Source: a virus (taxonomy: Duplodnaviria > Heunggongvirae > Uroviricota > Caudoviricetes). From it: a DNA stretch of 40,058 nt. The stretch lies in IMG/VR virus record IMGVR_UViG_3300028456_000007, one strand, 5' to 3'. The notes beneath the pieces are model-generated. The model saw nothing but the letters and a program-made list of their open reading frames with translations, ran no database searches and was not told the DNA's origin. Shown piece after piece: positions 1 through 34,264 of the stretch; position 1 is the stretch's first letter; every line of letters begins with the position of its first letter. Position numbers and translations under genes: made by a program.

Positions 1-573
1 ATGTTTTGCGAAGAAAAAGTAGCTCAAATGGCTGCATACCTACTTCTTAAGAGAGGTGGGCGCATGGCATATCTGAAATTGATGAAGCTGCTCTATCTGT
101 CTAACCGCCAGTCGATTTTGAAGCATGGCAGGATGATCGGCGAAGATAGCCTTTACTCTATGAAATTTGGACCAGTCATGTCGAATACGCTGAACTTGAT
201 TCGCGGTAAGGCTGAAGGCATTGGTGACTACTGGTACAACTTGATAGAGACGAACGGGCATAATGTATCGTTGCGTTCAGATCCGAGGGAAATGGATGCA
301 GACGAGGTCTTTGATGAATTGAGTCGTGCAGATATCCGGATTTTAGATGAAATCTATTCTCGGTATGGGCATATGAACCGATTTGATCTCGCAAATATGA
401 CGCATTTAGAAAGCGTTTGTCCAGAGTGGCACGATCCTGGCAATTCTCGTAAGCCTATAGACCTGAAAGAAATGCTGATCAGTGAGGGTAAAAGCGAGGA
501 TGAGGCTAATCGCATAATTGGCAAAATGGAAGAATCTCAGAAACTTAAGGAATTTTCTTTGCAATTATCATGA
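1..573 (+). CDS. Panacea/DUF4065-domain protein (SocA/PanA-like putative antitoxin); possibly 5'-partial at window edge
   Basis: ORF begins at window position 1; segment AYLLLKRGG-RMAYLKLMKLLYLS resembles the conserved N-terminal core of DUF4065/Panacea proteins as recalled; stop overlaps next start (ATGA at 570-573). Confidence 0.5.
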   Translation: MFCEEKVAQMAAYLLLKRGGRMAYLKLMKLLYLSNRQSILKHGRMIGEDSLYSMKFGPVMSNTLNLIRGKAEGIGDYWYNLIETNGHNVSLRSDPREMDADEVFDELSRADIRILDEIYSRYGHMNRFDLANMTHLESVCPEWHDPGNSRKPIDLKEMLISEGKSEDEANRIIGKMEESQKLKEFSLQLS

Positions 574-989
574 CGGATTATCAGCCATACAGGAAAGGAA
601 CTGTGCTTGCCCCAACTGGACCATGCAATCATCTTCATGTGATTTGTAATGATCCTGTTTATTACCCCGTTAACGATTGTTATTGTGTTTTAGTTGTTAA
701 TATTTCTAGTATCAAGGATGGTGTCCCCCACGATCCGTCTTGCGTCTTGAATTCCGGTGATCATCGCTTTATCAAGCATCCAAGTTATGTTGTTTACGCT
801 GAAGCTATAATTTGGCGAGTGGATAACATGGTTAGAAAGCAGCGATCGGGTGAGATTTCTGTTCATGATGATATGCCAGAAGCTACATTCAATAGAATTC
901 TGGACGGTTTTGATATATCTGATGAAGTTACGCCAAAGAACCTTAAATTTAAAAATAAATATTGCGTATCATCTATTGATGATGAGTAA
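570..989 (+). CDS. hypothetical 139-aa protein translationally coupled to the Panacea-domain gene (candidate toxin/effector partner)
   Basis: 4-bp ATGA start/stop overlap with upstream gene; Cys/His-rich; no family recognised. Confidence 0.45.
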   Translation: MTDYQPYRKGTVLAPTGPCNHLHVICNDPVYYPVNDCYCVLVVNISSIKDGVPHDPSCVLNSGDHRFIKHPSYVVYAEAIIWRVDNMVRKQRSGEISVHDDMPEATFNRILDGFDISDEVTPKNLKFKNKYCVSSIDDE

Positions 990-1028
990 ACAACAGGAAT
1001 TGTTTCGGTATAGCTTCTGGAGTTTTCT

Positions 1029-1202
1029 ATGGAAGATCAAAAAGCAACCAAGCCACAGCTTAAGTTCGACACAATGAAAGCATTCGCAGGTATGGGTGCT
1101 GCTGTTGAAGTTCTGATGAAGGCTGCTCCTAATGCGTTCACTCACGTTACTGTCTCTGGTAAAGAGCAGCAGGGTAAGCTTCGTCGTCGCAAAGCAGTAT
1201 GA
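1029..1202 (+). CDS. small hypothetical protein (57 aa), below ORF-track length cutoff
   Basis: ATG 1029 preceded by GGAG at 1019-1022; 57 sense codons to TGA 1200-1202; basic C-terminus (KLRRRKAV). Confidence 0.3.
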   Translation: MEDQKATKPQLKFDTMKAFAGMGAAVEVLMKAAPNAFTHVTVSGKEQQGKLRRRKAV

Positions 1203-1340
1203 TTCATAGGTGGTGATTTTTTTAAAATGTCTTTAGACATAATGTCGTTCACTTAAGTGTGATGGTACTGCGTTTCACCAGATAATGGTTTTTTGATATC
1301 TTAATTTCCCTCGCTGGGAGGGTAAATACAGGTAGCATGA

Positions 1341-2375
1341 ATGCCACTAAAAGCGTCACTTAACGGAAAAGAAATTCATTCTTTTGAATTTAACTCTCAG
1401 GAATGGGAATATCTTAAACAGACATATAAAAGCCAGTCTTTGTTTATGTCGTGCTGTGGTCAGCCTGGTATACCTAAAACAAGCAAACTTAATAACTATT
1501 ACTTTGCACATAAATCCAAAAGCGATTGCCTGTATGCGAAAGAAAGCGCAGAACATTTATATCTCAAATTCTTAATCGCAAAATTAGCCAGTGATGCTGG
1601 CTGGTCAGTTACTACCGAAAAACAAGGGGCGACCCCAGCAGGAGAACAATGGATTGCCGATGTGTTTTGTACCAGAAATAACGCGAAACTGGTTTTCGAA
1701 GTACAGTTATCACCGCAAAAAGACGATGAATTTAAAGAACGTCAAAAACGATATATCGCATCAGGAGTCCGTGCACTGTGGTTGCGAAAGTTACGTAAAG
1801 GAAGTAAAGAGCATGGTGGGAATATATACCATAGCTACGATTTACCTGTTTTTGGTGTGCGTCAGAATGAAAATGGGGACTTGTATCTACCACAGTTTGG
1901 GATTAGTGTCAGGGAGTTTATCGCGGGTGTTTTTGCCAGAAAGCTATTATGGTTCCCAAAGGTTGGGGATGTGCTGACTGCAAAAATAGAATCGCGAGTT
2001 ACAAAATGCTGGAGATGTAAGAAACGAACTGGAATTATCAGAGGTATTTCTGTTTACAGTAAGTCCGTATTCGTCAAGTTTTTATCTTTTCGTGATTCTG
2101 ATGTCAAAGAACTAATAGCCACTCACGTGGATAACAAAAAACTCTGGGCGGCTGGAATTGGTACTGTTAAGGACAGAGACAGTGATTGTTATTTATCTAA
2201 CTGTTGCATACATTGTTATTCGATTATAGGAGATTTCTTTTTATTAGAGGTTTTCGACTATCCGAATGATAAACAAAAGATAATGATAGAATTTACTTTT
2301 AATTATGCTAGCAATATGAAAATCTTATCCAGCGAGTGGGTATTTGATGGTAAAAAAGCTGAAATATTTTTCTGA
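1341..2375 (+). CDS. CoiA-like family protein (predicted PD-(D/E)xK-type nuclease with Cys clusters)
   Basis: 344-aa ORF; CC..YYFAH motif followed by ESAEH..K..E..QWIADV..FEVQLS resembles competence protein CoiA family; extra CWRC...NCCIHC cluster; GGGAGGG SD upstream; clearly AT-rich versus rest of window. Confidence 0.55.
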   Translation: MPLKASLNGKEIHSFEFNSQEWEYLKQTYKSQSLFMSCCGQPGIPKTSKLNNYYFAHKSKSDCLYAKESAEHLYLKFLIAKLASDAGWSVTTEKQGATPAGEQWIADVFCTRNNAKLVFEVQLSPQKDDEFKERQKRYIASGVRALWLRKLRKGSKEHGGNIYHSYDLPVFGVRQNENGDLYLPQFGISVREFIAGVFARKLLWFPKVGDVLTAKIESRVTKCWRCKKRTGIIRGISVYSKSVFVKFLSFRDSDVKELIATHVDNKKLWAAGIGTVKDRDSDCYLSNCCIHCYSIIGDFFLLEVFDYPNDKQKIMIEFTFNYASNMKILSSEWVFDGKKAEIFF

Positions 2376-2535
2376 TGCTGTCTTATCCTCGTTGCCATCC
2401 CGAAATGACAGGAACATCTGTGGGATGTTCTGGGTATTGTGTTCATAACAAAATGCCCCCAACTATCAGAGCCGAGGGAAATTAAGATATCAAAATAACA
2501 TTATCTGGTGAAATGCAGAGCAGCTCATCTTAAGT

Positions 2536-2562
2536 GAACGGCATTGGCCTTTATGCGTTTTT
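2536..2562 (+). terminator. weak candidate terminator downstream of CoiA-like gene
   Basis: short stem GCAT..ATGC followed by T8 run (2555-2562). Confidence 0.25.
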
Positions 2563-2567
2563 TTTCT

Positions 2568-2849
2568 TTAGTGATGTTCTTTGCTCTTCTGTTTGTCTGT
2601 TCTGACCCGTTCCCACTCGATACGTCCTTCTTCTCGTCTTTTATCTATGTATTCCGCAAGATCCTGAATATTGATGCAACGTTTTGCTTTTTGTGATGTG
2701 CCAATGCGATATGTAGGAACAGGCAACTTACAAGCGTTTGCTTTTGCTTCTGCTGTGGCTGGACTCATACCAAAGTACTTTTGGCTAACTGCTGAGAGTT
2801 CAATGTTTGAGGTATTGAATTCAGCCATCAGTAAAAACAAGGTGTTCAT
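2568..2849 (-). CDS. PrtN/excisionase-like small DNA-binding protein (putative recombination directionality factor)
   Basis: ORF 2568..2876; likely start MNTLFLLMAEF at ATG 2849-2847 with GGAGAA SD; sequence pattern resembles PrtN-family excisionase-like prophage proteins; sits at prophage end opposite to int. Confidence 0.5.
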   Translation of the reverse strand: MNTLFLLMAEFNTSNIELSAVSQKYFGMSPATAEAKANACKLPVPTYRIGTSQKAKRCINIQDLAEYIDKRREEGRIEWERVRTDKQKSKEHH

Positions 2850-2885
2850 AATTTTCTCCATCAAAACCGGCTGCACCCGGAAAAA

Positions 2886-3170
2886 TCATAATTCTGTGCT
2901 GGTGGCAGGAATTAATTTCTGCCAGATAGCTGAAACATATTTTGCCTGATGACGAGCATCAGCCAGGGCGTTGTGCCGTTCGCCATCGAAAGGCATGTCC
3001 ATTTTGGGGTCGAATCCGATGGAACGCCCAAGCGTAACGATCGTGCGTACATCGTGATCATTCCAGTACGCCCATGGGCAGATTTGTCCTGCTCGTTCAT
3101 AAGCTCCGCGTAAAATTACGTTGTCGAAGGTGGCCCCGTTACCCCAAACTTTTAAATATTTCGAAAACAT
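2886..3170 (-). pseudogene. DEDD-type 3'-5' exonuclease, C-terminal fragment only
   Basis: Exo II-like WGNGATFD and Exo III-like HNALADARHQA motifs present but no Exo I region; ORF starts immediately after stop of upstream HD gene. Confidence 0.4.
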
Positions 3171-3707
3171 TCATGCGCATTTGCGTAACTCCGATAACTC
3201 GTTAAAACGTTCCATAAACATCCCGTAGGCATGGCCTGGTGACAGTGGAATAACTTTGAACATCTCTGTTGCCGGGATGCCTTCCAGTACAGGCCAGAAA
3301 GAGCCATCATCAAGCCCGAGATCGCGGCGTTCGGTTGCCAGCATAATAAGATCGGCATATTTCACTGGCGTGCTCATAACAGGAGGTAACCCGTATTTCT
3401 CACGGATTACGGCGTCTATTTTTTCTTCCATCCGTTTATAGTCAGGAAGAAGTCGTTTCAGTGGCGCGGGGATGTCCTGGCAATATGCTTCTGTTGCATC
3501 ATGCATTAACGCTTCAAAAGCAAATTCCTGCGGCACCAGCTGGCTGCAAAGCACCGCATGCTGGGCGACACTGTAGAAGTGTGAAAGATGTCCTGCAAAG
3601 CGACAGATATTTGAAAGGGAAACTGCGATATCGTTAATCACGATGTCGTCTTTATTTATCCTGTCATAATAAAAATGCTTCCCGGAAAAAGTTTTAATAA
3701 ATGACAT
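3171..3707 (-). CDS. HD-domain phosphohydrolase (YfdR-like prophage 5'-nucleotidase family)
   Basis: H...HD motif (FAGH ... MHDATEAY); probable start MSFIKTF at ATG 3707-3705 with GGAGAA SD, giving 178 aa (ORF track start 3734). Confidence 0.6.
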   Translation of the reverse strand: MSFIKTFSGKHFYYDRINKDDIVINDIAVSLSNICRFAGHLSHFYSVAQHAVLCSQLVPQEFAFEALMHDATEAYCQDIPAPLKRLLPDYKRMEEKIDAVIREKYGLPPVMSTPVKYADLIMLATERRDLGLDDGSFWPVLEGIPATEMFKVIPLSPGHAYGMFMERFNELSELRKCA

Positions 3708-3834
3708 TTTGTTCTCCACGTATATGCGCTGCACCGCGCTGAATTCTGGTAAAAGGAAGCCCTCACCATCCGGTGATTATTGAGTTAATTACGTTTCCAT
3801 AAATGCCCCCGCAGAGGCATTTGCAGTAATGAAA

Positions 3835-4659
3835 TCAGGCGGTGAAAGTACCAATAAAGGTTTCTACTTTGCTGTCTTTGAATTTCTCAACAAGCAGATC
3901 ACGAAATTCGTTAGCCATTTCTTCCTGCACCGCTTCCAGCTGAATAATGCGCAGAACCAGTACAGGACGATCGCCAGTGATAATGCTGAGGCGTAATTTA
4001 AACGGACGTTCTTTCAGACCTTCAAACGGAACGCATTTAAATTCAAATGCCACTGGCATAATGTCTTTGGTCTTCGCTTCGACAGACTCCATCAGGGAGC
4101 GTTTGCCGCTGAAGTCATTATCTTCAAAATCAGCGGTCTGGTTTGCTTCAATCGTGATTTTACGGACTGCCGCAGCCGCTTTGGTTGCCTGAATGGTGTC
4201 ACCATTAGCATCAAAGCCCACAAGGTAGTCGGCCCAGTCTTCAATCCATTCTGCCAGTGACTTCTGGGAGTTACGCTCGCCATTAACAGACAACAGAGCA
4301 GAAAACGGTGCTGTCTTTTTCAGTTTGAGAGTGGCGGTGTTATCTGCGTGACCTGGTTCATCAATAGTACCCAGGTTAAGCACACTGACGGCTCGCATAT
4401 TATCGGCATCGATAAAGCAGCGGGTGCCTTCATCTGCAAGATCTTTAGAATAACGGGTAAAGTCATCGATGCAGGCAGTGGAAAGCGCACCACGGAAACG
4501 GAAGCGATTTAAATTAAATTTTTCCAGATCATGAATGCGGAAATTCTCAGGCAATGCCACAGCATCGGCACCAATCTTACTGATAATTTCATTAACACCC
4601 TGAGCAGAAATAAGGGCATGGATTTGATTAATTGCGGTTGCGTCTAAGTTCTGAGACAT
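3835..4659 (-). CDS. prophage early-region protein, YfdQ-like (DUF2303-type)
   Basis: 274-aa ORF; recalled resemblance to CPS-53/KpLE1 YfdQ family; unverified. Confidence 0.5.
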
Positions 4660-4724
4660 AATAAGTCCTCACTATATTAAGATATTCAGTGATGAGATAA
4701 ATAATCAGTTAATTAAGAACGATA

Positions 4725-5087
4725 TTAATGACCTGCTGCGCGGAGTTTTCCGTCAGGTTCACCGGCAAGAGTCAGTAATTGTCCCTGGTCTTCCTGCAGA
4801 ATAGTCAGGCGACCACCGCGATTGACATACATCGGCGTTTCGGTGGTGTCTTCTTCGGAAATTTTCCCGCGGTTAGTTGGGCGAACATATGAGAGTTTGT
4901 GTTTGATTTTCACACGGTTCTCATCAAACGGTTCGATTTCCAGATTGAGTGAGACCTTCCCTTTGGTTTTCGTGTTCATCACACCGGAAGCGACTTCACT
5001 GAGAACTGCGCCAATTTTGGTTTCAAATACGCCGCCGTCCAGCTCCCCGATAAATGCCTGCACATCAGTACTGCGTTCGCTAGCCAT
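4725..5087 (-). CDS. hypothetical early-left protein (YfdP-like), first gene downstream of pL
   Basis: ORF track 4725..5273, but GAGGAG SD precedes internal ATG 5087-5085 (MASERSTD...), giving 120 aa; upstream extension overlaps operators. Confidence 0.5.
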   Translation of the reverse strand: MASERSTDVQAFIGELDGGVFETKIGAVLSEVASGVMNTKTKGKVSLNLEIEPFDENRVKIKHKLSYVRPTNRGKISEEDTTETPMYVNRGGRLTILQEDQGQLLTLAGEPDGKLRAAGH

Positions 5088-5428
5088 TTTGCTGCTCCTC
5101 ATCATATCGACCCTGCAAGGTCGGTTGGTTTCTCCACAAAACAGAGAAGAACACCTGCGGTGGCAGCCGCCCGGATGGATTGGGTTATGAGCCCGTCGTC
5201 CGGTGATGCTCTTCTCTGTTTTGTAAAAAGAGCGGTACCAGCCGGAAGCAAGTGTACAAACTGGTACCGCCAAAGCAGTGGCTGTTGTGGTGACCGGTGC
5301 TGATCTCCGGCTTGCGGTTATTTCAGACTCTCACGGGCGTTTAATTGCCCCGCCGAACAGCTCTTTTCCGCAATAGCTGCAATGTCTTTCGCGCATCAGC
5401 CTGCGCCTTCACCACAACTCTAAAAACA

Positions 5429-5482
5429 AATGTAGGATATCCAACATGTGGGTGTCAAGAGTTTATGTTGGTTATCCTACAT
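5429..5482 (-). promoter_or_regulatory. pL-like promoter with two operator sites (OL)
   Basis: reverse-strand TTGACA (5458..5453) - 18 bp - TACATT (5434..5429); operators ATGTAGGATATCCAACAT (5430..5447) and ATGTTGGTTATCCTACAT (5465..5482). Confidence 0.5.
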
Positions 5483-5504
5483 AAAAAGATAGGCTCATAA
5501 AAAA

Positions 5505-5523
5505 AACCGGGGATACCCCGGTT
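5505..5523 (-). terminator. rho-independent terminator downstream of repressor gene (bidirectional)
   Basis: 8-bp stem AACCGGGG/CCCCGGTT with 3-nt loop; A8 run upstream and T-run downstream on forward strand (U-run on reverse). Confidence 0.6.
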
Positions 5524-5545
5524 TTGCGATAGTGAGGAAGATGTG

Positions 5546-6199
5546 TCAAAAATCCATTATTACTTGTTTGACAAGACCAACTATTCTGCAGTTCTCACCG
5601 CATTCAATAGTTTTATAGTTAGGATTTAGTGGGACGAGATACCTGTTCGGCCAGTCCTCAACAAATTTTTTGAGTGTCGCTTCTTGCCCACCATTGATAT
5701 GGGCAACAACGATTTTTCCGTTAATACACTCTGTATCAATAATATCTGGCTCTACGATAACGATAGAACCTTCTGGTATCGATGGTGAGCCGAGGGGATT
5801 GGTCATTGAATCACCACGGACCCGTAGTGCAAATGCCATTTCTGATACAAGGGCGGTAGTATAAACCCACTCTTCAGCATCTTCTTTCCTGACACCAGGC
5901 TCCGTCATTGTCCATGAACCCGCCTGAACCCACGAGATGAGGGGGACTTTTTTAACTGCGAATATTTCAGGTTTTAGATTTATCTTTGGTTCAGGCGAGC
6001 CTTTTCCGCTAACAAGCCACAGAGGATCGCATTTAAGTGCGTTGGCTAGGGCTTGAAGGTTGGCTCCATTTGGTTGGTAGTCGTCCTTTTCCCATCCAGT
6101 AACCGTGACACGGTTCACACCAGTCAAATCAGCCAGTGCTTGTTGTGTCAGGTTCAGTTCTTTTCGCCTTTGGCGAATACGATCACTCATGTTCATCAT
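5546..6199 (-). CDS. CI-like phage repressor (N-terminal HTH, C-terminal LexA/S24 peptidase-like autocleavage domain)
   Basis: HTH segment LTQQALADLTGVNRVTVTGWE; C-terminal VRGDSM ... KIVVAHINGGQEATLKKF typical of S24 family; start ambiguous among ATGs 6199/6196/6190 (ORF track 6223). Confidence 0.85.
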   Translation of the reverse strand: MMNMSDRIRQRRKELNLTQQALADLTGVNRVTVTGWEKDDYQPNGANLQALANALKCDPLWLVSGKGSPEPKINLKPEIFAVKKVPLISWVQAGSWTMTEPGVRKEDAEEWVYTTALVSEMAFALRVRGDSMTNPLGSPSIPEGSIVIVEPDIIDTECINGKIVVAHINGGQEATLKKFVEDWPNRYLVPLNPNYKTIECGENCRIVGLVKQVIMDF

Positions 6200-6263
6200 G
6201 TAGGCAATCCTACCACATGCCAATGTAGGATTCTTGACATTGACATGTTGGATATCCTACATT
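6198..6263 (+). promoter_or_regulatory. OR operator cluster with PR-like promoter
   Basis: three sites with palindromic core GT(A/T)GGATATCC(A/T)AC: 6200..6213, 6225..6238 (half-site), 6247..6260; TTGACA 6234..6239 - 18 bp - TACATT 6258..6263; cro ATG at 6295. Confidence 0.55.
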
Positions 6264-6294
6264 TCTGCTTAACGTAATTTAACGGGAGACAGAA

Positions 6295-6492
6295 ATGCGG
6301 AAATCCGACGTGATTAATTATTTCGGCGGAGTTTGTAAAACCGCCGAAGCCCTAGGTATTAAGCATCCGTCTGTTTCAGAGTGGCCTGAGATTATTCCTG
6401 AAGGCCGAGCGTACCAGTTAGAAAAAATTACTAACGGGAAACTGAAAGTTGACGTGTCTTTATATCAAAAGACTAACAGTGCTGCGGCATAA
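6295..6492 (+). CDS. Cro-like small DNA-binding regulator
   Basis: 65-aa ORF divergent from repressor across operators; GGGAGA SD. Confidence 0.6.
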   Translation: MRKSDVINYFGGVCKTAEALGIKHPSVSEWPEIIPEGRAYQLEKITNGKLKVDVSLYQKTNSAAA

Positions 6493-6519
6493 AAACACCA
6501 CAGAAATGAGGAATTAACC

Positions 6520-7098
6520 GTGGGTAAAGAACCTGAATGGAAAGTTGATAAACAACCAGCATGGCTGGTGGCAGCAATACGAAGAACGATTGCTGATTTA
6601 CCTCATGGCTATGAGGAAGCAGCAGAAATTCTTGGTTTGTATAAATCTGATGATATCACCCCAGCAAAAGATCAATTGCATAACAGACTGCGTAGCGGTG
6701 GGGATCAAATTTTTCCACTTGAGTGGGCCATGGTTTTACAGGATGCCAGTGGTACCAGGCATGTAACAGATGCAATAGCCCGTCGTAGTAATGGGGTGTT
6801 TGTGCCGCTGGTGGTCATTGATGACATTGACAATGGTGACATTAATCAGCGGCTGATGGAGTCAATAGAATGGATTGGCAAGCATTCCCAGTACTTACGC
6901 AAGGCAACTGCTGATGGAGTTATTGACCAGGCTGAGCGTGAGCAAATCGAAGAGAACAGCTACCAAGTAATGGCGAAGTGGCAGGAGCATTTAACACTGT
7001 TATTTCGTGTTTTTTGTGCGCCGGAAAAGAGTAACGCCCGCGAGTGTGCAGCTCCGGGCGTCGTGGCGTTTTGTGTCTGTGGAGAAACTAACGCATGA
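6520..7098 (+). CDS. hypothetical early-right protein (possibly CII-like regulator)
   Basis: 192-aa ORF directly after cro; family assignment uncertain. Confidence 0.35.
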   Translation: MGKEPEWKVDKQPAWLVAAIRRTIADLPHGYEEAAEILGLYKSDDITPAKDQLHNRLRSGGDQIFPLEWAMVLQDASGTRHVTDAIARRSNGVFVPLVVIDDIDNGDINQRLMESIEWIGKHSQYLRKATADGVIDQAEREQIEENSYQVMAKWQEHLTLLFRVFCAPEKSNARECAAPGVVAFCVCGETNA

Positions 7099-8246
7099 AC
7101 AGTTTAACGGCAAATAACCGTTTGTCGCAACAGCTGGTGGTCAGCGTCGCTGAACACCTGTTGTTACGGCATGAATGCAGATTACCAAATCACCTGGCTG
7201 TAAGTAACCACAGAGAACTTTACCTGACTGTGGGGGGCGAGTTGTGCAGGAACTTAACCGCTGGTTTCGTGACGGAAGAGGGCTTTATGTCCATGTTATT
7301 CGTTGGGAGCCAGAAACACAGCGCGTTATCTATCTTCGCAAAGACTACCCGCATGAGTGCTTTAGTCCTTTGTGGAAATTCAGGCGTGATTTTGTTGAGT
7401 GTGAAGGACCACCAGCACATTGATTCTGCCATTCCGGGACGTTACACTGTTCAGGCACCTTATAAAGCGGGTGCCGGGCGTGGAAACCCGGAATTCACCA
7501 AAGCGCACAACCGCGCTCTTGCGGTTTTTTTGTGTCATGAGCAGCATTACGCCCAAATTATGGTGGGGCGTGCAGGGCCAACTTCGGTTGGGCCGGGTTC
7601 TTTGGTGACCGGTATTTCCACCCCTGTACGTCTCACCACCAATAAGGTCGTGGAAAGCCTTGGTGGTGAGTTATTTAAAATCACCAAAGAGGCTGCCATC
7701 ATGGCTACGATCCCAACCCTCACTCAACCTGAAATTGCCATCGTTGATGGTCAGGCTGTTACTTCATCCCTGGCTGTTGCCAACTTCTTCTCCAAACGTC
7801 ATGACGATGTACTGAAAAAGATCCGCACGCTTGAATGCTCCGCATCATTCACTGCCCGCAATTTTTCGGTGAGTGATTACACCGATTGCACAGGCCGCAA
7901 ACTACCTTGCTATCAAATAACCCGCGACGGCTTTGCGTTTCTTGCTATGGGTTTCACGGGTAAACGTGCTGCCCAGTTCAAAGAGGCATACATCAATGCC
8001 TTTAACCAGATGGAGAAACAGCTTTCAAGGCCCGCTGTACCGAGCGACGTTGCACATAACGCCAGCGTTCTCTGTTCCTACATTTCATCAATTCATCAGG
8101 TCTGGCTGCAGCAGCTTTATCCTATGTTGGCAAAAGCCGAATCTCCGCTGGCTGTTAGCTTATATGACTATATTAATGATGCTTCGGCGCTGGCCTGCCT
8201 CATAAATTTGTCGCTGAACCCTTCAGAGGTAAGGGGGCGCAAATGA
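7095..8246 (+). CDS. Rha-family phage regulatory protein (Rha-like domain in C-terminal half; alternative start ATG 7701)
   Basis: ATGA coupling to upstream gene at 7095; Rha-like segment IAIVDGQAVTSSLAVANFF...YQITRDGFAFLAMGFTGKRA; AAGAGG SD before ATG 7701; no in-frame stop between 7095 and 8246. Confidence 0.5.
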   Translation: MNSLTANNRLSQQLVVSVAEHLLLRHECRLPNHLAVSNHRELYLTVGGELCRNLTAGFVTEEGFMSMLFVGSQKHSALSIFAKTTRMSALVLCGNSGVILLSVKDHQHIDSAIPGRYTVQAPYKAGAGRGNPEFTKAHNRALAVFLCHEQHYAQIMVGRAGPTSVGPGSLVTGISTPVRLTTNKVVESLGGELFKITKEAAIMATIPTLTQPEIAIVDGQAVTSSLAVANFFSKRHDDVLKKIRTLECSASFTARNFSVSDYTDCTGRKLPCYQITRDGFAFLAMGFTGKRAAQFKEAYINAFNQMEKQLSRPAVPSDVAHNASVLCSYISSIHQVWLQQLYPMLAKAESPLAVSLYDYINDASALACLINLSLNPSEVRGRK

Positions 8247-8467
8247 TCCGGAATATTTTCAAACGTTTTACCAATCAGACTTTCCGTTGTCCTCGTCCGG
8301 GTCAGTGGTACACCACGCCTGCAGGGCATGTTCTACGTGTTAGCCTGGTTGACCGTGAATGTCAGAAGGTGGTTTGTGAACCGCTGGGCCGTAATTACCG
8401 CGTCAGTATGCCGCTTATAGCCTTTCGCTCCAGAAAAAACATGAAGCATCTCGGAGGTGCAGCATGA
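8243..8467 (+). CDS. hypothetical protein
   Basis: 74-aa ORF with ATGA coupling to upstream and downstream genes. Confidence 0.4.
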   Translation: MIRNIFKRFTNQTFRCPRPGQWYTTPAGHVLRVSLVDRECQKVVCEPLGRNYRVSMPLIAFRSRKNMKHLGGAA

Positions 8468-9282
8468 GTATGGAGCTGATGGTTAAAGCGATGAAAATTC
8501 GAGTGGGTAATCCATTGCGAAAACTGGTTCTGATCAAGCTGGCTGATAATGCCAGCGATCAGGGTGAGTGCTGGCCCAGCTACCAGCATATTGCTGACCA
8601 GTGCGAGATTAGCAAACGTTCTGTGATGAATCATATTGCGGCCCTTTGTGATTCCGGGCTGGTAAAAAAAGTCACCCGGAAAGGTGAAAAAGGTAACTCA
8701 AGTAATATCTATCTCCTTCATCTTGATGGTGCAGGAGATTCACTAGGGGGTAGTGCAAATAATTCACTATCTGGTGCAGCAAATTCACCAGGTAGTGCAG
8801 GAGTTGCACCAGGGGGTGGTGCAGGAGATTCACCCAGAACCAGTCACTCTTTTGAACCAGTCAAAGAACCAGTCAATGAACCAATAGCTGTTGGTGCATC
8901 TGCTGATGAGTCCGTGCGAGTTCGTTCAAACCGACCGGAATACTCTCCGGAGTTTGAGCAGGCATGGCTGGCATACCCCAAACGTGCTGGTGGCAATTCA
9001 AAATCTGCAGCCTTCAAAGCCTGGAAAGCCCGTTTGAATGAGGGGGTAAAACCCGAAACCATGCTGGAAGGTGTGAAACGCTACGCGGGCTGGGTATCTG
9101 CGATGGGTAACAGCGGCACACAATTTGTGAAACAGGCTGTCACGTTCTTTGGTCCGGATCGTCATTTCGAAGAATCCTGGGAAGTTCCTGCGGTATCTGC
9201 AGCCAGACGCGAGGACCCGTACTTCAAAGCCAGTTACGACAACGTGGACTACAGCCAGATCCCGGCAGGATTCAGGGGGTGA
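8464..9282 (+). CDS. replication initiation protein (N-terminal winged-helix domain, O-like)
   Basis: N-terminal LRKLVLIKLADNASDQGECWPSYQHIADQCEISKRSVMNHIAAL resembles phage replication-protein HTH domains; Gly/Ser linker encoded by iteron-like repeats. Confidence 0.5.
   Translation: MSMELMVKAMKIRVGNPLRKLVLIKLADNASDQGECWPSYQHIADQCEISKRSVMNHIAALCDSGLVKKVTRKGEKGNSSNIYLLHLDGAGDSLGGSANNSLSGAANSPGSAGVAPGGGAGDSPRTSHSFEPVKEPVNEPIAVGASADESVRVRSNRPEYSPEFEQAWLAYPKRAGGNSKSAAFKAWKARLNEGVKPETMLEGVKRYAGWVSAMGNSGTQFVKQAVTFFGPDRHFEESWEVPAVSAARREDPYFKASYDNVDYSQIPAGFRG
8728..8875. repeat. iteron-like direct repeats inside replication gene (candidate ori)
   Basis: five 16-bp near-palindromic units (GGTGCAGGAGATTCAC type) at 8728, 8752, 8773, 8794, 8818 with 21-24 bp spacing, then three perfect GAACCAGTCA copies at 8837, 8854, 8866. 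Confidence 0.45.
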
Positions 9283-9284
9283 TC

Positions 9285-9773
9285 ATGAGTCTTTTGAATG
9301 AAGTTCAGAAATTCATTGAAGCCCATCCGGGGTGTACTTCCGGAGACATTGCGGATGCTTTTGCAGGTTACTCACGGCAGCGCGTTCTGCAGTCAGCAAG
9401 CAAGTTACGTCAGAGTGGGCGTGTGGCTCACCGTTGTGAAGGGGATACACGCAGACATTTCCCGCGCCTGACTGAGAGAGCGCAGGAGCCGGAACCACAA
9501 CCAGTTCGTGAAACCAGACCTGTGCGCAATTTCTATGTCGGCACTAACGATCCCCGGGTGATTTTGTGCCTGACCCGCCAGGCGGAAGAACTGGAGTCCA
9601 GGGGCTTATACCGTCGTGCTGCAACGGTGTGGATGGCGGCATTCCGTGAAAGCCACTCCCAGCCAGAACGAAACAATTTTCTGGCGCGTCGTGAGCAGTG
9701 TTTACGGAAAAGCAGCAAGCGCGCTGTATCGGGTGATGAGTGGTATCTGTCAGGGAATTACGTGGGGGCTTAA
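9285..9773 (+). CDS. PerC/Pch-like transcriptional regulator family protein with N-terminal extension
   Basis: C-terminal AEELESRGLYRRAATVWMAAF ... ARREQCLRK matches PerC-family pattern as recalled; ATG 9285 after GTG 9279. Confidence 0.45.
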   Translation: MSLLNEVQKFIEAHPGCTSGDIADAFAGYSRQRVLQSASKLRQSGRVAHRCEGDTRRHFPRLTERAQEPEPQPVRETRPVRNFYVGTNDPRVILCLTRQAEELESRGLYRRAATVWMAAFRESHSQPERNNFLARREQCLRKSSKRAVSGDEWYLSGNYVGA

Positions 9774-10426
9774 TGAGTAATAAATATTGCCAGGCGCTGG
9801 TGGAGCTGCGGAATAAACCAGCCCATGAACTGAAGGAAGTGGGCGATCAGTGGCGCACGCCGGATAACATTTTCTGGGGAATTAACACCCTGTTTGGCCC
9901 GTTTGTTCTGGATCTGTTCACTGATGGTGATAACGCCAAATGTGCCGCTTATTACACTGCGGAAGACAACGCGCTGGCGCATGACTGGTCTGAACGTCTT
10001 GCGGAGCTTAAAGGTGCTGCCTTTGGTAATCCCCCGTACAGCCGCGCCAGTCAGCATGAAGGGCAATACATCACCGGCATGCGTTACATCATGAAGCATG
10101 CCAGTGCCATGCGTGATAAGGGCGGACGCTATGTTTTCCTGATCAAAGCTGCCACCAGCGAAGTGTGGTGGCCGGAAGATGCAGATCATATTGCTTTTAT
10201 TCGCGGGCGTATTGGTTTTGAACTGCCTGCCTGGTTTATCCCGAAGGACGAGAAGCAGGTGCCGACAGGCGCTTTCTTCGCTGGTGCTATTGCTGTTTTC
10301 GACAAGACCTGGAAGGGACCGGCAATCAGCTACATCGGGCGCGATGAACTTGAGGCATGTGGTGAGGCGTTTCTGGCGCAGGTTCGCCAGCAGGCAGAAA
10401 AACTGGTCAGGGAGATGGCGGCATGA
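9773..10426 (+). CDS. phage DNA N6-adenine methyltransferase (Dam-like)
   Basis: NPPY motif (FGNPPYS) and WRTPDNIFWGINTLFGPFVLD N-terminal pattern; ATG 9773 overlaps upstream stop. Confidence 0.8.
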   Translation: MSNKYCQALVELRNKPAHELKEVGDQWRTPDNIFWGINTLFGPFVLDLFTDGDNAKCAAYYTAEDNALAHDWSERLAELKGAAFGNPPYSRASQHEGQYITGMRYIMKHASAMRDKGGRYVFLIKAATSEVWWPEDADHIAFIRGRIGFELPAWFIPKDEKQVPTGAFFAGAIAVFDKTWKGPAISYIGRDELEACGEAFLAQVRQQAEKLVREMAA

Positions 10427-10749
10427 CGACGTTAACTCAATGCCAGCAGCAGGTGCTGGATATGCTGATTTCTTATCAGAAAGAACGTGGCTTCCCGCCA
10501 ACCAATCAGGAGGTGGCAACCATGCTGGGATACCGTTCGGTGAATGCAGCGGTGGAGCATCTTCGCGCACTGGAGAAAAAAGGCGTCATCACGATAAAGC
10601 GTGGCGTGGCCCGGGGGATAACGCTTCATACCGCGGTGAAGGACGACGACAGCGAGGCGGTCGGGATTATCCGCGCACTGCTTGCCGGTGAGGAAAACGC
10701 CAGGCTGCGTGCAACCCACTGGTTACATGAGAGGGACCTGAAAGTATGA
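10423..10749 (+). CDS. LexA N-terminal DNA-binding-domain homolog lacking S24 peptidase domain
   Basis: LTQCQQQVLDMLISYQKERGFPPTNQEVATMLGYRSVNAAVEHLRALEKKGVI aligns closely with LexA residues ~1-70 (winged HTH); only 108 aa, no Ser/Lys peptidase region. Confidence 0.6.
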   Translation: MTTLTQCQQQVLDMLISYQKERGFPPTNQEVATMLGYRSVNAAVEHLRALEKKGVITIKRGVARGITLHTAVKDDDSEAVGIIRALLAGEENARLRATHWLHERDLKV

Positions 10750-11135
10750 AGCTGATCCTGCCTTTTCCGCCCAGCGTGAACACGTACTGGCGACACCCCA
10801 ACAAAGGGGCGTTTGCTGGTAAGAGCCTGATAAGCGCGGCGGGGCGCAAATTCCAGAGCGCGGCGTGTGCAGCAATAGTTGAGCAGTTACGTCGTCTGCC
10901 AAAACCAACGTCGGCACCTGCTTCAGTGGAGATCGTGTTGTTTCCTCCTGATAACAGGATCCGCGATCTGGACAACTATAACAAGGCACTGTTTGACGCC
11001 CTGACACACGCGGGTGTGTGGGAAGACGACAGCCAGGTGAAAAGAATGCTGGTGGAGTGGGGACCGGTTATCCCGGAAGGGAAGGTCGAGATCACTATCA
11101 GTAAGTACGAGAAAACGGCGGGTGCAGCCGCCTGA
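10746..11135 (+). CDS. rusA: RusA-family Holliday junction resolvase
   Basis: MKLILPFPPSVNTYWRH N-terminus and length typical of RusA. Confidence 0.85.
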   Translation: MKLILPFPPSVNTYWRHPNKGAFAGKSLISAAGRKFQSAACAAIVEQLRRLPKPTSAPASVEIVLFPPDNRIRDLDNYNKALFDALTHAGVWEDDSQVKRMLVEWGPVIPEGKVEITISKYEKTAGAAA

Positions 11136-11154
11136 TTAAGAGGAGAAACGAAGT

Positions 11155-11964
11155 ATGAATAATCTGATGGTCATTGATGGTATTGAAGTTCGTCGTGATG
11201 CTTATGGGCGTTACAGCCTGAACGATCTGCATCGCGCAGCAGTAGCATCTGGTGCAAATGCCAGAACCAAGGAGCCAGGAAAGTTTCTTTCCAGCCAACA
11301 AACTGTTGAGCTTGTTCATGAATTGACCAACACCCAGAATTTGGGTGTTGACCCGGTGAGTGTGATTCATGGGGGAAATGAACGGGGAACGTATGTCTGT
11401 AAGGAACTGGTGTATGCCTATGCAATGTGGATCAGCCCGTCATTCCATCTGAAGGTGATCCGTACTTTCGACATGGTAACCAGCGCACCGGAAAAATTAT
11501 CCGGACAGGCTGCTGACAAGATGCAGGCTGGTGTGATTCTGCTGGACTTTATGCGCCGGGAATTAAACCTGTCTAACTCTTCAGTGCTTGGTGCCTGTCA
11601 GAAACTCCAGGAGGCTGTTGGCTTACCGAATCTGGCACCGCGCTATGCCATTGATGCTCCTGCTGATGCACACGATGGCTCAAGTCGCCCGACACTGTCA
11701 CTGAGTGCACTGCTGAAACAGTATGGTATCCGCCTGACGGCTAATCAGGCATATCACCAGATGGCGAAGCTGGGGATCGTTGAACAACGCGAACGATACA
11801 GCCGTACCGCGATTAACAACATCAAAAAATTCTGGTCGCTGACAGCGAAAGGCTGCATGTTCGGCAAGAACATCACCAGTCCCGCAAATCCGCGCGAGAC
11901 GCAGCCGCATTTCTTCGAATCCCGATTCCCTGAGCTGTTAAAGCTGCTCGATACCGTTCATTGA
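11155..11964 (+). CDS. KilA-N domain protein (antirepressor-like)
   Basis: N-terminal VIDGIEVRRDAYGRYSLNDLHRAA ... VCKELVYAYAMWISP pattern of KilA-N domain. Confidence 0.65.
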   Translation: MNNLMVIDGIEVRRDAYGRYSLNDLHRAAVASGANARTKEPGKFLSSQQTVELVHELTNTQNLGVDPVSVIHGGNERGTYVCKELVYAYAMWISPSFHLKVIRTFDMVTSAPEKLSGQAADKMQAGVILLDFMRRELNLSNSSVLGACQKLQEAVGLPNLAPRYAIDAPADAHDGSSRPTLSLSALLKQYGIRLTANQAYHQMAKLGIVEQRERYSRTAINNIKKFWSLTAKGCMFGKNITSPANPRETQPHFFESRFPELLKLLDTVH

Positions 11965-11965
11965 G

Positions 11966-12961
11966 GTGACCGTGAGAGCACTACTGACCCCTGAAATTGC
12001 CCCGCGTATGGGGATCGTATTGTTCAGGCCAGGTTCAGAGCTGATGCCCCTGTTTATGCAGGGGCGTGTCCTGCTGGAGCCTGAGCCGGAGCGTTATTCA
12101 TCTTTCGCCAGTGGTGCCGTTCCCGCGGCATCACAACCGCTGGCGGATGATCCTGCTGTTCGGGCCGTGTTCCGCAATGAGGCAGTGATCCGTCGTGCTG
12201 GTGGCGTGGAATGTCTTGAAAGCTGGTTACTTCGTGAAAAAGGCTGCCAGTGGCCTCATTCCGACTGGCACAGCGAGAACATGACCACAATGCGACACGC
12301 TCCGGGCGCAATCCGTCTGTGCTGGCACTGTGATAACCAGCTGCGCGATCAGTTCACGGAGCGGCTGGAATCAATGGCAACGGATAACTGTGCCCGCTGG
12401 GTGTTGTCTGTTGTGCGTCGGGATCTCGGTTTTGATGATAGTCACGTTGTGACAATGCCGGAACTGTGCTGGTGGCTGATTCGTAATGACCTGGCGGATG
12501 CCTTACCGGAAAGTGCAGCCCGTAAGGCACTGAGATTACCAAAGCCTGTTGTGCCGTCTGTCACCCGGGAGAGTGACCTTGTTCCTTCGGTTCCTGCCAC
12601 CAGCATTATCCAGGATAAAGCGAAAAAGGTGCTGGAGCTGAAAGTGGATCCGGAGTCGCCGGAGTCTTTTATGTTACGCCCTAAACGTCGCCGCTGGGTT
12701 AACGAAAAGTACACGCGCTGGGTTAAGACGCAGCCGTGTGCATGTTGTGGAAAGCCTGCTGATGATCCCCACCACCTGATAGGTCACGGTCAGGGTGGAA
12801 TGGGTACAAAAGCGCATGACCTCTTTGTGTTGCCTTTGTGCAGAAAGCATCACGACGAGCTGCATGCGGATACCGTGGCATTTGAAGAGAAGTATGGCTC
12901 CCAGTTGGAGCTGATATTTCGTTTTATCGATCGTGCGCTGGCAATAGGCGTACTGGCGTAA
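11966..12961 (+). CDS. DUF968-like nin-region protein with C-terminal HNH-like Cys/His cluster
   Basis: C-terminal CACCGKPADDPHHLIGHG ... LPLCRKHHDELH; GTG start at 11966 uncertain. Confidence 0.45.
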   Translation: MTVRALLTPEIAPRMGIVLFRPGSELMPLFMQGRVLLEPEPERYSSFASGAVPAASQPLADDPAVRAVFRNEAVIRRAGGVECLESWLLREKGCQWPHSDWHSENMTTMRHAPGAIRLCWHCDNQLRDQFTERLESMATDNCARWVLSVVRRDLGFDDSHVVTMPELCWWLIRNDLADALPESAARKALRLPKPVVPSVTRESDLVPSVPATSIIQDKAKKVLELKVDPESPESFMLRPKRRRWVNEKYTRWVKTQPCACCGKPADDPHHLIGHGQGGMGTKAHDLFVLPLCRKHHDELHADTVAFEEKYGSQLELIFRFIDRALAIGVLA

Positions 12962-12974
12962 GTGGAGAACGAGC

Positions 12975-13727
12975 ATGAACCTTGAAGCCTTACCGAAATA
13001 TTACTCCCCGAAATCTCCAAAACTGAGCGATGACGCACCGGCGACAGGCTCTGGTGGTTTAACAATTACGGATGTGATGGCTGCGCAGGGGATGGTGCAG
13101 TCGAAAGCACCGCTTGGGTTTGCCTTATTCCTGGCAAAAGTTGGTGTTCAGGATCCTCAGTTTGCGATTGAAGGTCTGCTCAATTACGCGATGGCACTGG
13201 ATAACCCGACATTGAATAAATTGAGTGAAGAAACCCGGCTACAGATCATTCCTTACCTTGTGAATTTTGCCTTTGCTGATTATTCCAGGTCTGCGGCAAG
13301 TAAGGCTCGCTGTGAGCATTGTGCTGGTACTGGATTTCATAATGTATTGCGCGAAGTGGTGAAACACTCCAGAAGCGGGGAATCTGTTATCAAGGAAGAG
13401 TGGGTGAAGGAACTATGTCAGCATTGTCATGGTAAGGGAGAAGTCAGCACAGCGTGTAGAGGGTGTAAGGGGAAAGGTATTGTACTGGATGAAAAAAGAA
13501 CCCGGCTTCATGGTGCGCCTGTTTATAAGATTTGTGGGCGTTGCAATGGAAACCGGTTTAGCCGTTTACCAACCACACTGGCGCGGCATCATGTCCAGAA
13601 GCTGGTACCGGACCTGACGGATTATCAGTGGTACAAAGGATATGCAGATGTCATTGATAAACTGGTTACAAAGTGCTGGCAGGAAGAAGCATATGCAGAG
13701 ACACAATTGAGAAAAGTGACAAGATAA
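12975..13727 (+). CDS. Q-like late gene antiterminator (zinc-finger type)
   Basis: CEHCAGTG...CQHCHGKG...CRGCKGKG...CGRCNG zinc-binding repeats; position just upstream of a short terminated leader and lysis genes. Confidence 0.65.
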   Translation: MNLEALPKYYSPKSPKLSDDAPATGSGGLTITDVMAAQGMVQSKAPLGFALFLAKVGVQDPQFAIEGLLNYAMALDNPTLNKLSEETRLQIIPYLVNFAFADYSRSAASKARCEHCAGTGFHNVLREVVKHSRSGESVIKEEWVKELCQHCHGKGEVSTACRGCKGKGIVLDEKRTRLHGAPVYKICGRCNGNRFSRLPTTLARHHVQKLVPDLTDYQWYKGYADVIDKLVTKCWQEEAYAETQLRKVTR

Positions 13728-13758
13728 ATGATTTTCGCCGAAGATGGCGACATGATGC

Positions 13759-13795
13759 TTGCATTTTTCAAAAAATATGGTTAGGATTCTCCTAA
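13759..13795 (+). promoter_or_regulatory. candidate late promoter region with 6-3-6 palindrome TTAGGATTCTCCTAA
   Basis: TTGCAT at 13759..13764; perfect inverted repeat 13781..13795; lies between Q gene and terminator. Confidence 0.3.
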
Positions 13796-13837
13796 CGATG
13801 GGCTTTGTATGTCTGCCGTTAACGAAATCATAACAAA

Positions 13838-13859: not shown

Positions 13860-13877
13860 CTTTTCTGGAGGTCAATA

Positions 13878-16439: not shown

Positions 16440-16460
16440 TTTATCGAGATGATAATTGAA

Positions 16461-34261: not shown

Positions 34262-34264
34262 TCC

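Follow-up and report, generated by a model that had tools for sequence, protein, structure and literature searches.

Accessory cargo at the left edge of a prophage integrated in dusA, including a CoiA-like gene in an IS4-type cassette

The 2.4 kb at the left edge of the phage DNA analyzed here is ordinary accessory cargo within a single prophage integrated in dusA. The DNA, hereafter the window, is the whole 40,058-nucleotide stretch of IMG/VR record IMGVR_UViG_3300028456_000007. The explanation that best accounts for it, and in which we have high confidence as a whole, is that a single temperate phage of about 39 kb, whose early genes are lambdoid and whose tail is contractile, occupies bases 1..38748 and is integrated in the 5' end of dusA. 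This explanation draws on the observed architecture of the attachment sites, on the observed variability of the slot that holds the cargo, and on the ends and duplications of a small cassette found within it. A preliminary description of the window had left two options for its left boundary: the prophage could extend past the window to an attL outside it, with the 2.4 kb as part of its cargo, or a separate element could be stacked at dusA. Related prophages and the attP site of phage mEp460 supported the former.

Attachment sites of the dusA prophage

A dusA-specific tyrosine integrase is encoded on the minus strand at 37459..38556 (PF00589 and PHROG integrase families). The region containing it (query 37300..38760) was 97-99.7% identical at the DNA level to Enterobacteria phage mEp460 (NC_019716) and Escherichia phage 1720a-02, the closest sequenced phages. 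The GC content of the integrase gene is low (0.417), as is that of the left edge of the window. The integrase abuts dusA, as had been claimed, with 88 bp between its open reading frame (ORF) and the dusA start. The dusA gene (38645..39682, plus strand) remains intact after the insertion: it matched PF01207 over its full length, and its ORF encodes 345 residues that include the entire Dus domain.

The beginning of this dusA gene is a replacement 5' end supplied by the phage (38645..38740, plus strand). It differs from the K-12 gene (92 of the first 110 nt identical, or 84%, with 9 of the first 36 residues changed) and matches the left arm of the mEp460 attP except for a few SNPs. Immediately after it lies the attR core, ATGCTCGA (38741..38748, plus strand), an 8-bp overlap region that is the sole stretch common to attB, attL, attR and attP and that occurs once in the whole window. 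The native remainder of dusA (38749..39682, plus strand) then follows, and matches K-12 dusA over the aligned stretch, which extended to window position 38835. In a three-way alignment, the left side of attB equalled that of attL and the right side of attB equalled that of attR, with the breakpoint at ATGCTCGA. The attP predicted from these sites is contained in the genome of a free phage, as the attP in the linear virion genome of mEp460 has the left arm of attR and the right arm of attL on either side of the core. The record of Lys8385Vzw was rejected as evidence for attP because the core is duplicated in tandem in it (ATGCTCGAATGCTCGA), which suggests that this record may have been joined from two prophage ends. 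The attP was taken from mEp460 in its place.

Three GGGARCC motifs lie in the P arm at 38577..38611, out of 14 occurrences in the window. In a 4.4-kb stretch of mEp460, all five occurrences of the motif were within the attP region, three to the left and two to the right of the core. Based on these positions, we consider the cluster at 38577..38611 to be candidate arm-type integrase binding sites.

According to the mechanism we propose, the tyrosine integrase would recombine attP with attB across the 8-bp overlap ATGCTCGA. The attP site is located between int and the cargo slot; next to int it holds the sequence that replaces the start of dusA, and next to the slot it holds a P' arm of 254 bp. 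Integration would place int and this replacement sequence at attR, inside the window. The attL site, which would end 255 bp left of base 1, would contain the original start of dusA, then the core, then the P' arm. The order expected at attL is ATGCTCGA and then TAGGATGTACCG of the P' arm, and the expected circle junction (attP) would read GCTCCTATGCTCGATAGGATG.

The left boundary was located in relatives that were 97-99.8% identical over 1..3163, which include the ETEC strain H10407 and contigs encoding an identical CoiA-like protein. In every one of these relatives, a distance of exactly 255 bp separates the position of base 1 from the end of the displaced native dusA 5' sequence and core ATGCTCGA upstream of it. 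The core and P' arm were found 255 bp before the Panacea ATG at nine loci, four of them from draft genomes whose CoiA-like protein is 100% identical to that of the window. An intact attL was present 255 bp before panA in all relatives with upstream sequence (at least 10 loci, including all the long contigs with the identical CoiA-like protein), with the one exception of GU2018_CL13, which has a variant of the core and the same breakpoint. The displaced dusA 5' end was seen as an imperfect direct repeat at the far boundary in at least 10 relatives, and the P' arm was joined directly to the cargo in all of them. Beyond attL, the relatives have the native zur-yjbM synteny, and the upstream order lexA-dinF-yjbJ-zur-DUF2713 is the arrangement at the empty K-12 locus. 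In relatives, then, the dusA core lies upstream of position 1 without a break in synteny, the finding that the preliminary description had tied to cargo inside the prophage.

The accessory slot between attP and xis

The gene order of mEp460 is dinI-int-attP-cargo-small ORF-xis-exo, and from int to exo it is identical to that of the phage studied here. Since the mEp460 virion carries attP together with this gene order, the attP-xis slot is part of the phage itself. This variable accessory slot accounts for the 2.4 kb that separates the P' arm from xis, and here it contains PanA and a putative toxin with a predicted MazF fold, a conserved small ORF and a secondary insertion. The slot holds a Panacea gene and a 139-residue partner in H10407 and RM8385, a different Panacea gene and a 153-residue partner in FAM21845, a hypothetical protein and YafO in M8, and gp23 in mEp460. 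The small ORF (57 residues; 1029..1202, plus strand; phrog_2741 at 1e-34) is part of the phage backbone next to xis, and its homologue in mEp460, gp24, is directly beside the excisionase. The gene that had been described as excisionase-like, on the minus strand at 2568..2849 (or to 2876), encodes an excisionase of the PrtN family based on its matches to PF11112 (80 bits) and phrog_1300 ('excisionase') and on the annotation of its mEp460 homologue as excisionase. A scan of 1..3000 for promoters and terminators found fewer promoter-like sites than in shuffled sequences and no useful terminator.

The first gene after the P' arm is a panA-type antitoxin gene (1..573, plus strand). Its match to the Panacea/SocA domain PF13274 (70.9 bits against a cut-off of 25.7) and to phrog_1281 agreed with its earlier label of Panacea, and the RefSeq label in H10407 is 'Panacea domain-containing protein'. 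The start of the following ORF, which encodes a putative toxin partner of 139 residues (570..989, plus strand; phrog_19071), overlaps the panA stop by 4 bp, giving a co-oriented two-gene arrangement. The AlphaFold model of the partner (pLDDT 90.5) is predicted to have a MazF fold: the top approximately 40 PDB matches were all MazF/Kid toxins, although these matches were moderate, with E values of about 1e-3 and TM scores of 0.6-0.65 (target-normalised) or 0.5 (query-normalised). A small co-oriented second ORF is also present behind the first cargo gene in three related dusA prophages, and in one of these it encodes the toxin YafO. The pairing of PanA with MazF/PemK-like toxins has been experimentally validated (Kurata et al. 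2022, PMC8832971). The genes described here resemble those PanAT systems in having a Panacea protein and an overlapping small ORF and in being borne by a prophage; they differ in that the toxin had no Pfam or PADLOC match and is related to MazF solely through its predicted fold. PanA and its partner with the predicted MazF fold probably constitute a toxin-antitoxin pair, which would act in stabilisation or abortive infection.

Because the genome from which the window derives was not among the records found, what precedes base 1 is known by inference, and attL in that genome is presumed to lie where it does in the relatives. Of 5426 complete E. coli genomes, none covers more than 90% of bases 1..25000, and the contigs that encode the identical CoiA-like protein match the window at 99.46% identity over 1..3163 and diverge beyond it. 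It is very unlikely that the left end of the source prophage has degraded, with attL deleted or rearranged, the prophage locked in place and the cargo abutting unrelated chromosome. Some decay has occurred, as a 1.44-kb deletion in the window truncates the exonuclease gene, and in one relative contig an IS abuts the cassette described below. However, such a degraded end is difficult to reconcile with the intact attL of every relative with upstream sequence other than GU2018_CL13. The first base of the window is also that of the panA ATG, as would be expected of a cut made at a gene boundary and not of a biological break.

Even less credible is the possibility that bases 1..2567 are an integrative island in tandem with the prophage that has its own att junction before xis, a reading that is already contradicted. 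The 2.4 kb is indeed compositionally distinct, as had been noted (GC of 0.399 for 1..2567 against 0.514 for 2568..37400), its gene content is atypical of phages, and the CoiA-like gene has no PHROG family match, all of which would suit an island. Against this, a PHROG family was found for each of the other three genes, namely the Panacea gene, its partner and the small ORF, no recombinase gene is present in 1..2567, the P' arm abuts the cargo directly in the relatives and the mEp460 virion genome packages an equivalent slot between attP and xis. In addition, 1..2600 contains no core, dusA-like or attP-like sequence. Alignment of 38560..38800 with these bases gave best scores of 12 (plus strand) and 15 (minus strand), which is chance level (12.1 +/- 1.5 for shuffled queries, with a maximum of 17), and a 26-nt attP-type probe had no match at three or fewer mismatches; the earlier search by eye for a copy of the dusA 5' end in 1..2567 had likewise found none. 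Nothing is stacked at dusA, because neither an additional att site nor an additional integrase is present. The proposal of a separate insertion fails at the level of dusA, and stands only for 1240..2546, a segment that makes up half of the region and is nested within the prophage cargo by IS4-type transposition.

The IS4-type cassette and its CoiA-like gene

This nested segment is a 1307-bp mobile insertion cassette (MIC) derived from the IS4 family (1240..2546, plus strand), and was identified by its inverted ends, its target duplications and its presence at a second locus. The left terminal inverted repeat is at 1240..1313 (plus strand, terminus TAATGTCGTTCACTTAAG) and the right at 2473..2546 (minus strand, terminus CAATGCCGTTCACTTAAG when read inward). 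The cassette ends are identical to IS4 terminal repeats at 15 of 18 positions, and the terminal 18 nt of the right end are identical to the ends of insZ-type IS; over 74 nt, the arms have about 75-82% identity to insZ-type IS4-family ends. A left-arm query (1236..1320) had matches in 2356 E. coli genomes. The terminus CAATGCCGTTCACTTAAG fits the end consensus of the IS4 subgroup, -AATR--------WTW, whose members produce 10-13 bp duplications (PMC2266710). There is no transposase gene in the cassette, as its sole long ORF is the CoiA-like gene, which has no DDE domain.

The cassette is flanked by the halves of a terminator. A hairpin, ATGTCTTTAGACAT (1227..1240), holds the left copy of a decayed 10-bp duplication, GTCTTTAGAC at 1229..1238, at which position NR3736 retains GCCTTTAGGC. 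The right copy, GCCTTTATGC (2547..2556), aligns to GCCTTCAGGC of uninterrupted phages and is followed by the T-run of the original bidirectional terminator. The two copies match at 7 of 10 positions in the window and at 9 of 10 in NR3736. Most related prophages have no cassette and have the terminator aaaacccgccttcaggcgggtttttt at that place instead; the cassette is present in 12 of the 5426 complete E. coli genomes. It also occurs end to end, at 88.8% identity, at an unrelated second locus next to thiM/thiD. The homology at that locus spans 1242..2551 only, and so starts and stops at the cassette ends, and the target duplication there is perfect (10/10, CCTTCAAAGG). No exact empty site for the second locus was recovered (relatives spanning it are 84-89% identical and diverged at the junction), and for this reason the case for transposition at that locus rests on the duplication itself. 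The insZ element of K-12 is itself in a terminator hairpin with a 10-bp duplication.

Based on these ends and duplications, we propose that transposition placed a non-autonomous cassette in the loop of the terminator hairpin that separates the small ORF from xis, and that the gene for a CoiA-like PD-(D/E)XK nuclease would have arrived with it. Mobilisation of the cassette may have been effected in trans by an insZ-type transposase. An intact cognate transposase was not seen among four sampled IS copies, all of which were pseudogenes (frameshifted) or truncated, and this would also be expected if the CoiA segment were a moron acquired by illegitimate or homologous recombination, with repeats that are incidental regulatory or terminator sequences. 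We consider such an origin improbable. The imperfect duplication in the window, the single copy of the cassette wherever it was found, and the homologues on an IncFII plasmid, which keeps the left repeat only, and in a Salmonella satellite, which has neither repeat, are compatible with it. Incidental repeats would not, however, account for termini that are identical to IS4-family element ends over 18 nt and similar over 74 nt, for homology at the second locus that is bounded by the repeat termini and a perfect 10-bp duplication, for the better-preserved duplication in NR3736, or for the terminator hairpin target common to the cassette and the K-12 insZ element.

The passenger gene (1341..2375, plus strand) encodes a CoiA-like PD-(D/E)XK nuclease of 344 residues. 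The label CoiA-like had been assigned previously and was borne out by a match to PF06054 (39.6 bits against a cut-off of 20.3), while the score for the CoiA N-terminal domain PF25164 (18.6 bits) was under its cut-off of 26.3. Residues D107, E120 and Q122 are invariant, and the protein has CC..H..C and CxxC..CxxC clusters. Its model (pLDDT 89.8) has a PD-(D/E)XK-like core that resembles Bax1, the R2 endonuclease domain, Hjc and Can2. The protein had no PHROG or PADLOC match; the PADLOC defence search gave no hit for any of five proteins, two of which were searched up to E = 10, and NCBIfam and PDB sequence searches were uninformative. Homologues are found on enterobacterial mobile elements, namely a prophage, an island, an IncFII plasmid and a P4-like satellite.

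We also considered whether the CoiA-like protein could be the transposase of its own cassette. This was rejected, as the ends are those of a DDE-type IS4-family element and as homologues occur without one or both repeats. Because the ends belong to a DDE-type IS, mobilisation of the cassette by a PD-(D/E)XK protein is nearly excluded, and is far less likely than a role in defence. Any such role is conjectural. We speculate, with considerable doubt, that the gene is a single-gene anti-phage or anti-plasmid defence carried on an IS4-type non-autonomous cassette that homes to terminator hairpins.

Relation to known elements and implications

The arrangement at dusA matches the general scheme published for dusA-associated integrase (DAI) islands (Farrugia et al. 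2015, PMC4482086). As in those elements, the integrase gene and dusA are neighbours with divergent transcription, the element has inserted in the 5' end of dusA and supplies a new one, and the original 5' end has been moved to the far boundary as an imperfect direct repeat. Compared with mEp460, the slot has a PanA/MazF-like pair and the CoiA cassette in place of gp23, and the structural module specifies a contractile tail (sheath, tube and baseplate), whereas mEp460 is annotated with a lambda-like tail fibre protein.

Known MICs include MIC231 of Bacillus cereus, derived from IS231 of the IS4 family, and the qnrD/qnrS2 cassettes of Proteeae and Aeromonas. The cassette resembles these in that IS-derived inverted ends flank a passenger gene without a transposase, in having a target duplication of IS4-family length (10 bp) and in its presumed mobilisation in trans. 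It differs in its ends, which come from an insZ-type enterobacterial element of the IS4 subgroup and are each a 74-nt copy of one and the same IS end (the transposase 3'-side), in its passenger, a CoiA-like nuclease, and in its targets, the loops of terminator hairpins. Up to 2008, derivatives with a passenger gene had been reported in the IS4 family for the IS231 subgroup only (PMC2266710). The passenger protein shares with the CoiA competence proteins of Firmicutes (PF06054) a nuclease-like domain above the Pfam threshold and a conserved D...E-x-Q motif. In contrast to them, its N-terminal CoiA domain is sub-threshold, it has an extra C-terminal four-cysteine domain, and it is the single-gene passenger of enterobacterial mobile elements, not a member of a competence regulon.

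Overall, the arrangement of the left end is ordinary, and the sole mildly new point beyond routine annotation is the location of the CoiA-like gene in a small IS4-type cassette within the cargo. With its boundary corrected, the prophage begins about 262 bp left of the window and ends at 38748, and annotation should treat the PanA/MazF-like pair and the CoiA-like gene as cargo of the phage and not as a second island. The attP-xis slot of the widespread dusA phages of E. coli is a site at which toxin-antitoxin-type pairs are swapped. The cassette documents a route by which a single nuclease gene has moved between a prophage and another island, and is an enterobacterial addition to the IS4-family derivatives that carry a passenger and target terminator hairpins. 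If our speculation on a defence function is correct, IS4-family transposases would shuttle defence genes among prophage slots, genomic islands, plasmids and satellites.

Position of the left prophage end

At the right end of the window, dusA (38645..39682) is followed by pspG. Upstream, the integrase gene (37459..38556, minus strand) adjoins dusA across a gap of 88 bp, as proposed in the preliminary description. The ORF at 2568..2849, described there as excisionase-like, matched PF11112 (PrtN family) and, among PHROG families, phrog_1300 (excisionase). The domain labels proposed further left were likewise borne out, with a Panacea domain in the ORF at 1..573 and a CoiA nuclease-like domain in that at 1341..2375, and this left region is compositionally distinct, as had been noted (GC 0.399 for 1..2567 vs 0.514 for 2568..37400). 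Going by the annotation of ETEC H10407, its closest complete genome, the stretch from xis to int comprises lambdoid early genes, lysis, terminase, portal and capsid genes, a contractile tail and baseplate, then an invertible tail-fibre segment, and finally dinI. No tRNA genes were found in the window.

Near the integrase, a serine recombinase gene (36442..37005) adjoins tail-fibre assembly ORFs of opposite orientation (35582..36019 and 36021..36365, both on the minus strand), and 35582..37005 looks like a Pin/Gin-type invertible tail-fibre segment. Near xis, the window is without approximately 1.44 kb that is present in H10407 (region 2886..3734, junction 3158..3163). Of the 3'-5' exonuclease gene this loss has left the 94 C-terminal codons (2886..3170), which are now joined to an ORF of the yfdR region (3171..3734); the two BLAST segments overlap by 6 bp, suggestive of a deletion through microhomology.

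The preliminary description had seen no copy of the dusA 5' sequence in the left region, and alignment agreed: local alignments of 38560..38800 against 1..2600 scored 12 and 15, at the level of shuffled queries (12.1 +/- 1.5, maximum 17). The 8-bp core ATGCTCGA occurs once in the 40 kb, at 38741..38748, and a 26-nt attP-type probe had no match with up to 3 mismatches allowed.

The location of attL was instead indicated by relatives. Window positions 1..2897 are 99.8% identical to ETEC H10407, in which a 105-bp dusA 5' pseudogene fragment, annotated in RefSeq, lies just upstream of the Panacea gene and is preceded by DUF2713/yjbM, zur, yjbJ, dinF and lexA, the same gene order as before the unoccupied dusA of K-12. 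In a three-way alignment of K-12 attB, H10407 attL and the window attR, the left side of attB runs on into attL and its right side into attR, with the switch point at ATGCTCGA. The H10407 core ends 255 bp before the counterpart of window base 1. The 20-nt junction ATGCTCGATAGGATGTACCG was found at the same 255-bp distance in RM8385, 2013C-3264 and NR3736, in four draft-genome contigs whose CoiA-like protein is 100% identical to that of the window, and in one further contig assembled from a sequencing run (Logan), which has this protein too. In one B2-type strain, GU2018_CL13 (NZ_AP029000.1, approximately 1100..1135 of the retrieved locus), the core is the variant ATGCTTGA and the displaced native dusA 5' remnant differs strongly from that of K-12, with the breakpoint unchanged; the remnant could represent either a dusA allele of that lineage or the 5' end brought by a previous occupant. 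As the best complete genome covers only 90% of window positions 1..25000, we infer the attL position in the source from these relatives, and do so strongly: it would lie approximately 255 bp beyond the window.

The phage origin of the region between attP and xis

Phage mEp460, whose linear deposited record we took as the virion genome, is 97% identical in DNA to window positions 37300..38760, a query covering dinI, int and an attP arm. In order, mEp460 has tail fibre, dinI, int, attP, gp23, gp24 (a homologue of the 57-aa ORF of the window), an excisionase of the PrtN family and exonuclease. Its attP, ...GCATTGCTCCT ATGCTCGA TAGGATGTACCG..., consists of the left arm of the window attR, the core and the right arm of the attL of lysogens. 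The motif GGGARCC occurs five times in a 4.4-kb stretch of mEp460, always within attP (three in the P arm, on the int side, and two in the P' arm), and these motifs are candidate arm-type integrase sites. In the window the P-arm trio lies at 38577..38611; the P' pair falls in the 254 bp just outside it. The att core is in tandem duplicate (ATGCTCGAATGCTCGA; 2157..2172 of the retrieved locus) in the deposited "complete genome" of phage Lys8385Vzw (MT225100.1), which suggests that this record joins two prophage ends rather than reading a true attP.

The preliminary description had weighed cargo inside the prophage, with attL beyond the window, against a separate element stacked at dusA. Because mEp460 has the slot between attP and its excisionase, the slot is packaged phage DNA. 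A separate stacked element is not supported. Integration would bring this slot beside attL and leave int and xis at opposite prophage ends, the arrangement that had been supposed from the window. We conclude that there is one prophage, with the cargo inside it, attL approximately 255 bp beyond the window and nothing stacked at dusA. This prophage fits the scheme for dusA-associated integrase elements, in which dusA gains a new 5' end from the element while its original one marks the outer boundary (PMC4482086). The surrogate 5' end matches K-12 at 92 of 110 nt, with 9 of the first 36 residues changed.

The contents of the slot differ among related dusA prophages: a Panacea gene with a 139-aa partner in the window, H10407 and RM8385, a different Panacea gene with a 153-aa partner in FAM21845, a hypothetical protein with a YafO toxin in M8, and gp23 in mEp460. 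The Panacea protein, the 139-aa partner and the small ORF all had PHROG matches; the partner had no match in Pfam or PADLOC. Its confident AlphaFold model (pLDDT 90.5) had MazF/Kid toxins as all of its best approximately 40 PDB matches (target-normalised TM 0.6-0.65, E ~1e-3). Since pairing of PanA antitoxins with MazF-like toxins has been validated experimentally (PMC8832971), these fold matches lead us to read 1..989 as a putative PanA/MazF-like toxin-antitoxin pair.

The cassette carrying the CoiA-like gene

The CoiA-like gene is absent from most related prophages, in which 47 bp with a bidirectional terminator, aaaacccgccttcaggcgggtttttt, separate the small ORF from xis. The insert was present in 12 of 5426 complete E. 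coli genomes, always at the same site. It is flanked by inverted repeats (1241..1313 and 2473..2545), with one extra terminal base per side (T1240, G2546), so that the cassette termini fall at 1240 and 2546. Its outermost 18 nt, TAATGTCGTTCACTTAAG and CAATGCCGTTCACTTAAG, match IS4 terminal repeats at 15 of 18 positions, and its termini fit the IS4-subgroup end consensus -AATR--------WTW (PMC2266710). In 2356 genomes, a left-arm query (1236..1320) matched transposase genes or pseudogenes of the IS4 family, among them the insZ remnant that K-12-type strains have between tdk and adhE. Both arms are 75-82% identical to insZ-type ends across 74 nt; in the right arm, the terminal 18 nt match these ends exactly.

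A second locus, beside thiM/thiD, carries a CoiA-like homologue (89% protein identity). Its DNA homology covers exactly 1242..2551, repeat to repeat, and a direct repeat of 10 bp without mismatch, CCTTCAAAGG, borders the unit on both sides. At the phage locus of NR3736, the most divergent copy, the left-hand GCCTTTAGGC and the right-hand GCCTTTATGC match at 9 of 10 positions, and this duplication corresponds to the loop and stem of the terminator AAAACGCC-TTTA-GGCGTTTT. The left copy of the window lineage has turned into GTCTTTAGAC, by two changes that keep a hairpin, ATGTCTTTAGACAT (1227..1240). This paired change, from GCC..GGC in NR3736 (approximately 2615..2634 of its locus) to GTC..GAC, may reflect selection for a terminator after the small ORF once the cassette had split the original one. 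The K-12 insZ element, too, lies in the hairpin of a terminator and has a duplication of 10 bp, CCCAGAAGGG. At the tdk-adhE locus retrieved (2487..3501), this pseudo-element sits in hairpin ACGGCCCCAGAAGGGGCCGT and its ends are unlike each other, one IS4-like (GATCAGTTAAG) and the other cassette-arm-like (GTTCACTTAAG).

Given the IS4-type ends, the second locus, the target duplications and the lack of a transposase gene between the ends, the CoiA-like insert is built like a mobile insertion cassette of IS4-family origin. No exact empty sites for the cassette were recovered, and all four cognate IS copies sampled were defective. In a Logan contig (SRR11354623), an AT-rich IS (1..1075) whose DDE transposase is of IS4 type (PF13701/PF01609) abuts the cassette within the left repeat, at the equivalent of window position 1254 and at the contig end, which could be either a genuine insertion of the IS or a join made in assembly. 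At the second locus, two strains differ before the right repeat (approximately 5120..5160) in a poly-C tract, and one has an extra 20 bp.

The encoded protein had a CoiA_nuc match above threshold, with the CoiA N-terminal domain under its cut-off, and no match in PADLOC. Invariant across 47 homologues are, among others, D107, E120, Q122, an N-terminal CC..H..C cluster and a C-terminal CxxC..CxxC cluster. The core of its confident model (pLDDT 89.8) resembles PD-(D/E)XK nucleases (Bax1, the R2 endonuclease domain, Hjc, Can2 and McrC). The family is small (71 clusters), and its enterobacterial contexts are prophage, genomic island, IncFII plasmid, with small HTH/Cas2-like pairs as neighbours, and a Salmonella P4-like satellite, with TumE. 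Homologues of 76-79% protein identity at the retrieved loci L024-L029 lie beside small toxin-antitoxin-like pairs, and the IncFII neighbours include Cas2-like, DUF5397 and HTH genes. The IncFII copy retains the left IS4-type repeat only and the Salmonella satellite copy neither. A CoiA-domain protein has been reported as one of several newly described defence systems in E. coli (bioRxiv 2022.05.12.491691), with no link to the protein of the window established; a defence role is a reasonable guess, no more.

The low GC of the left region has two ordinary causes, a swappable toxin-antitoxin slot beside attP and a nested IS4-type cassette. The architecture was already known, and public genomes already have annotated near-identical copies of this left-end region. 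The cassette adds a new member to a known class of element, mobile insertion cassettes.
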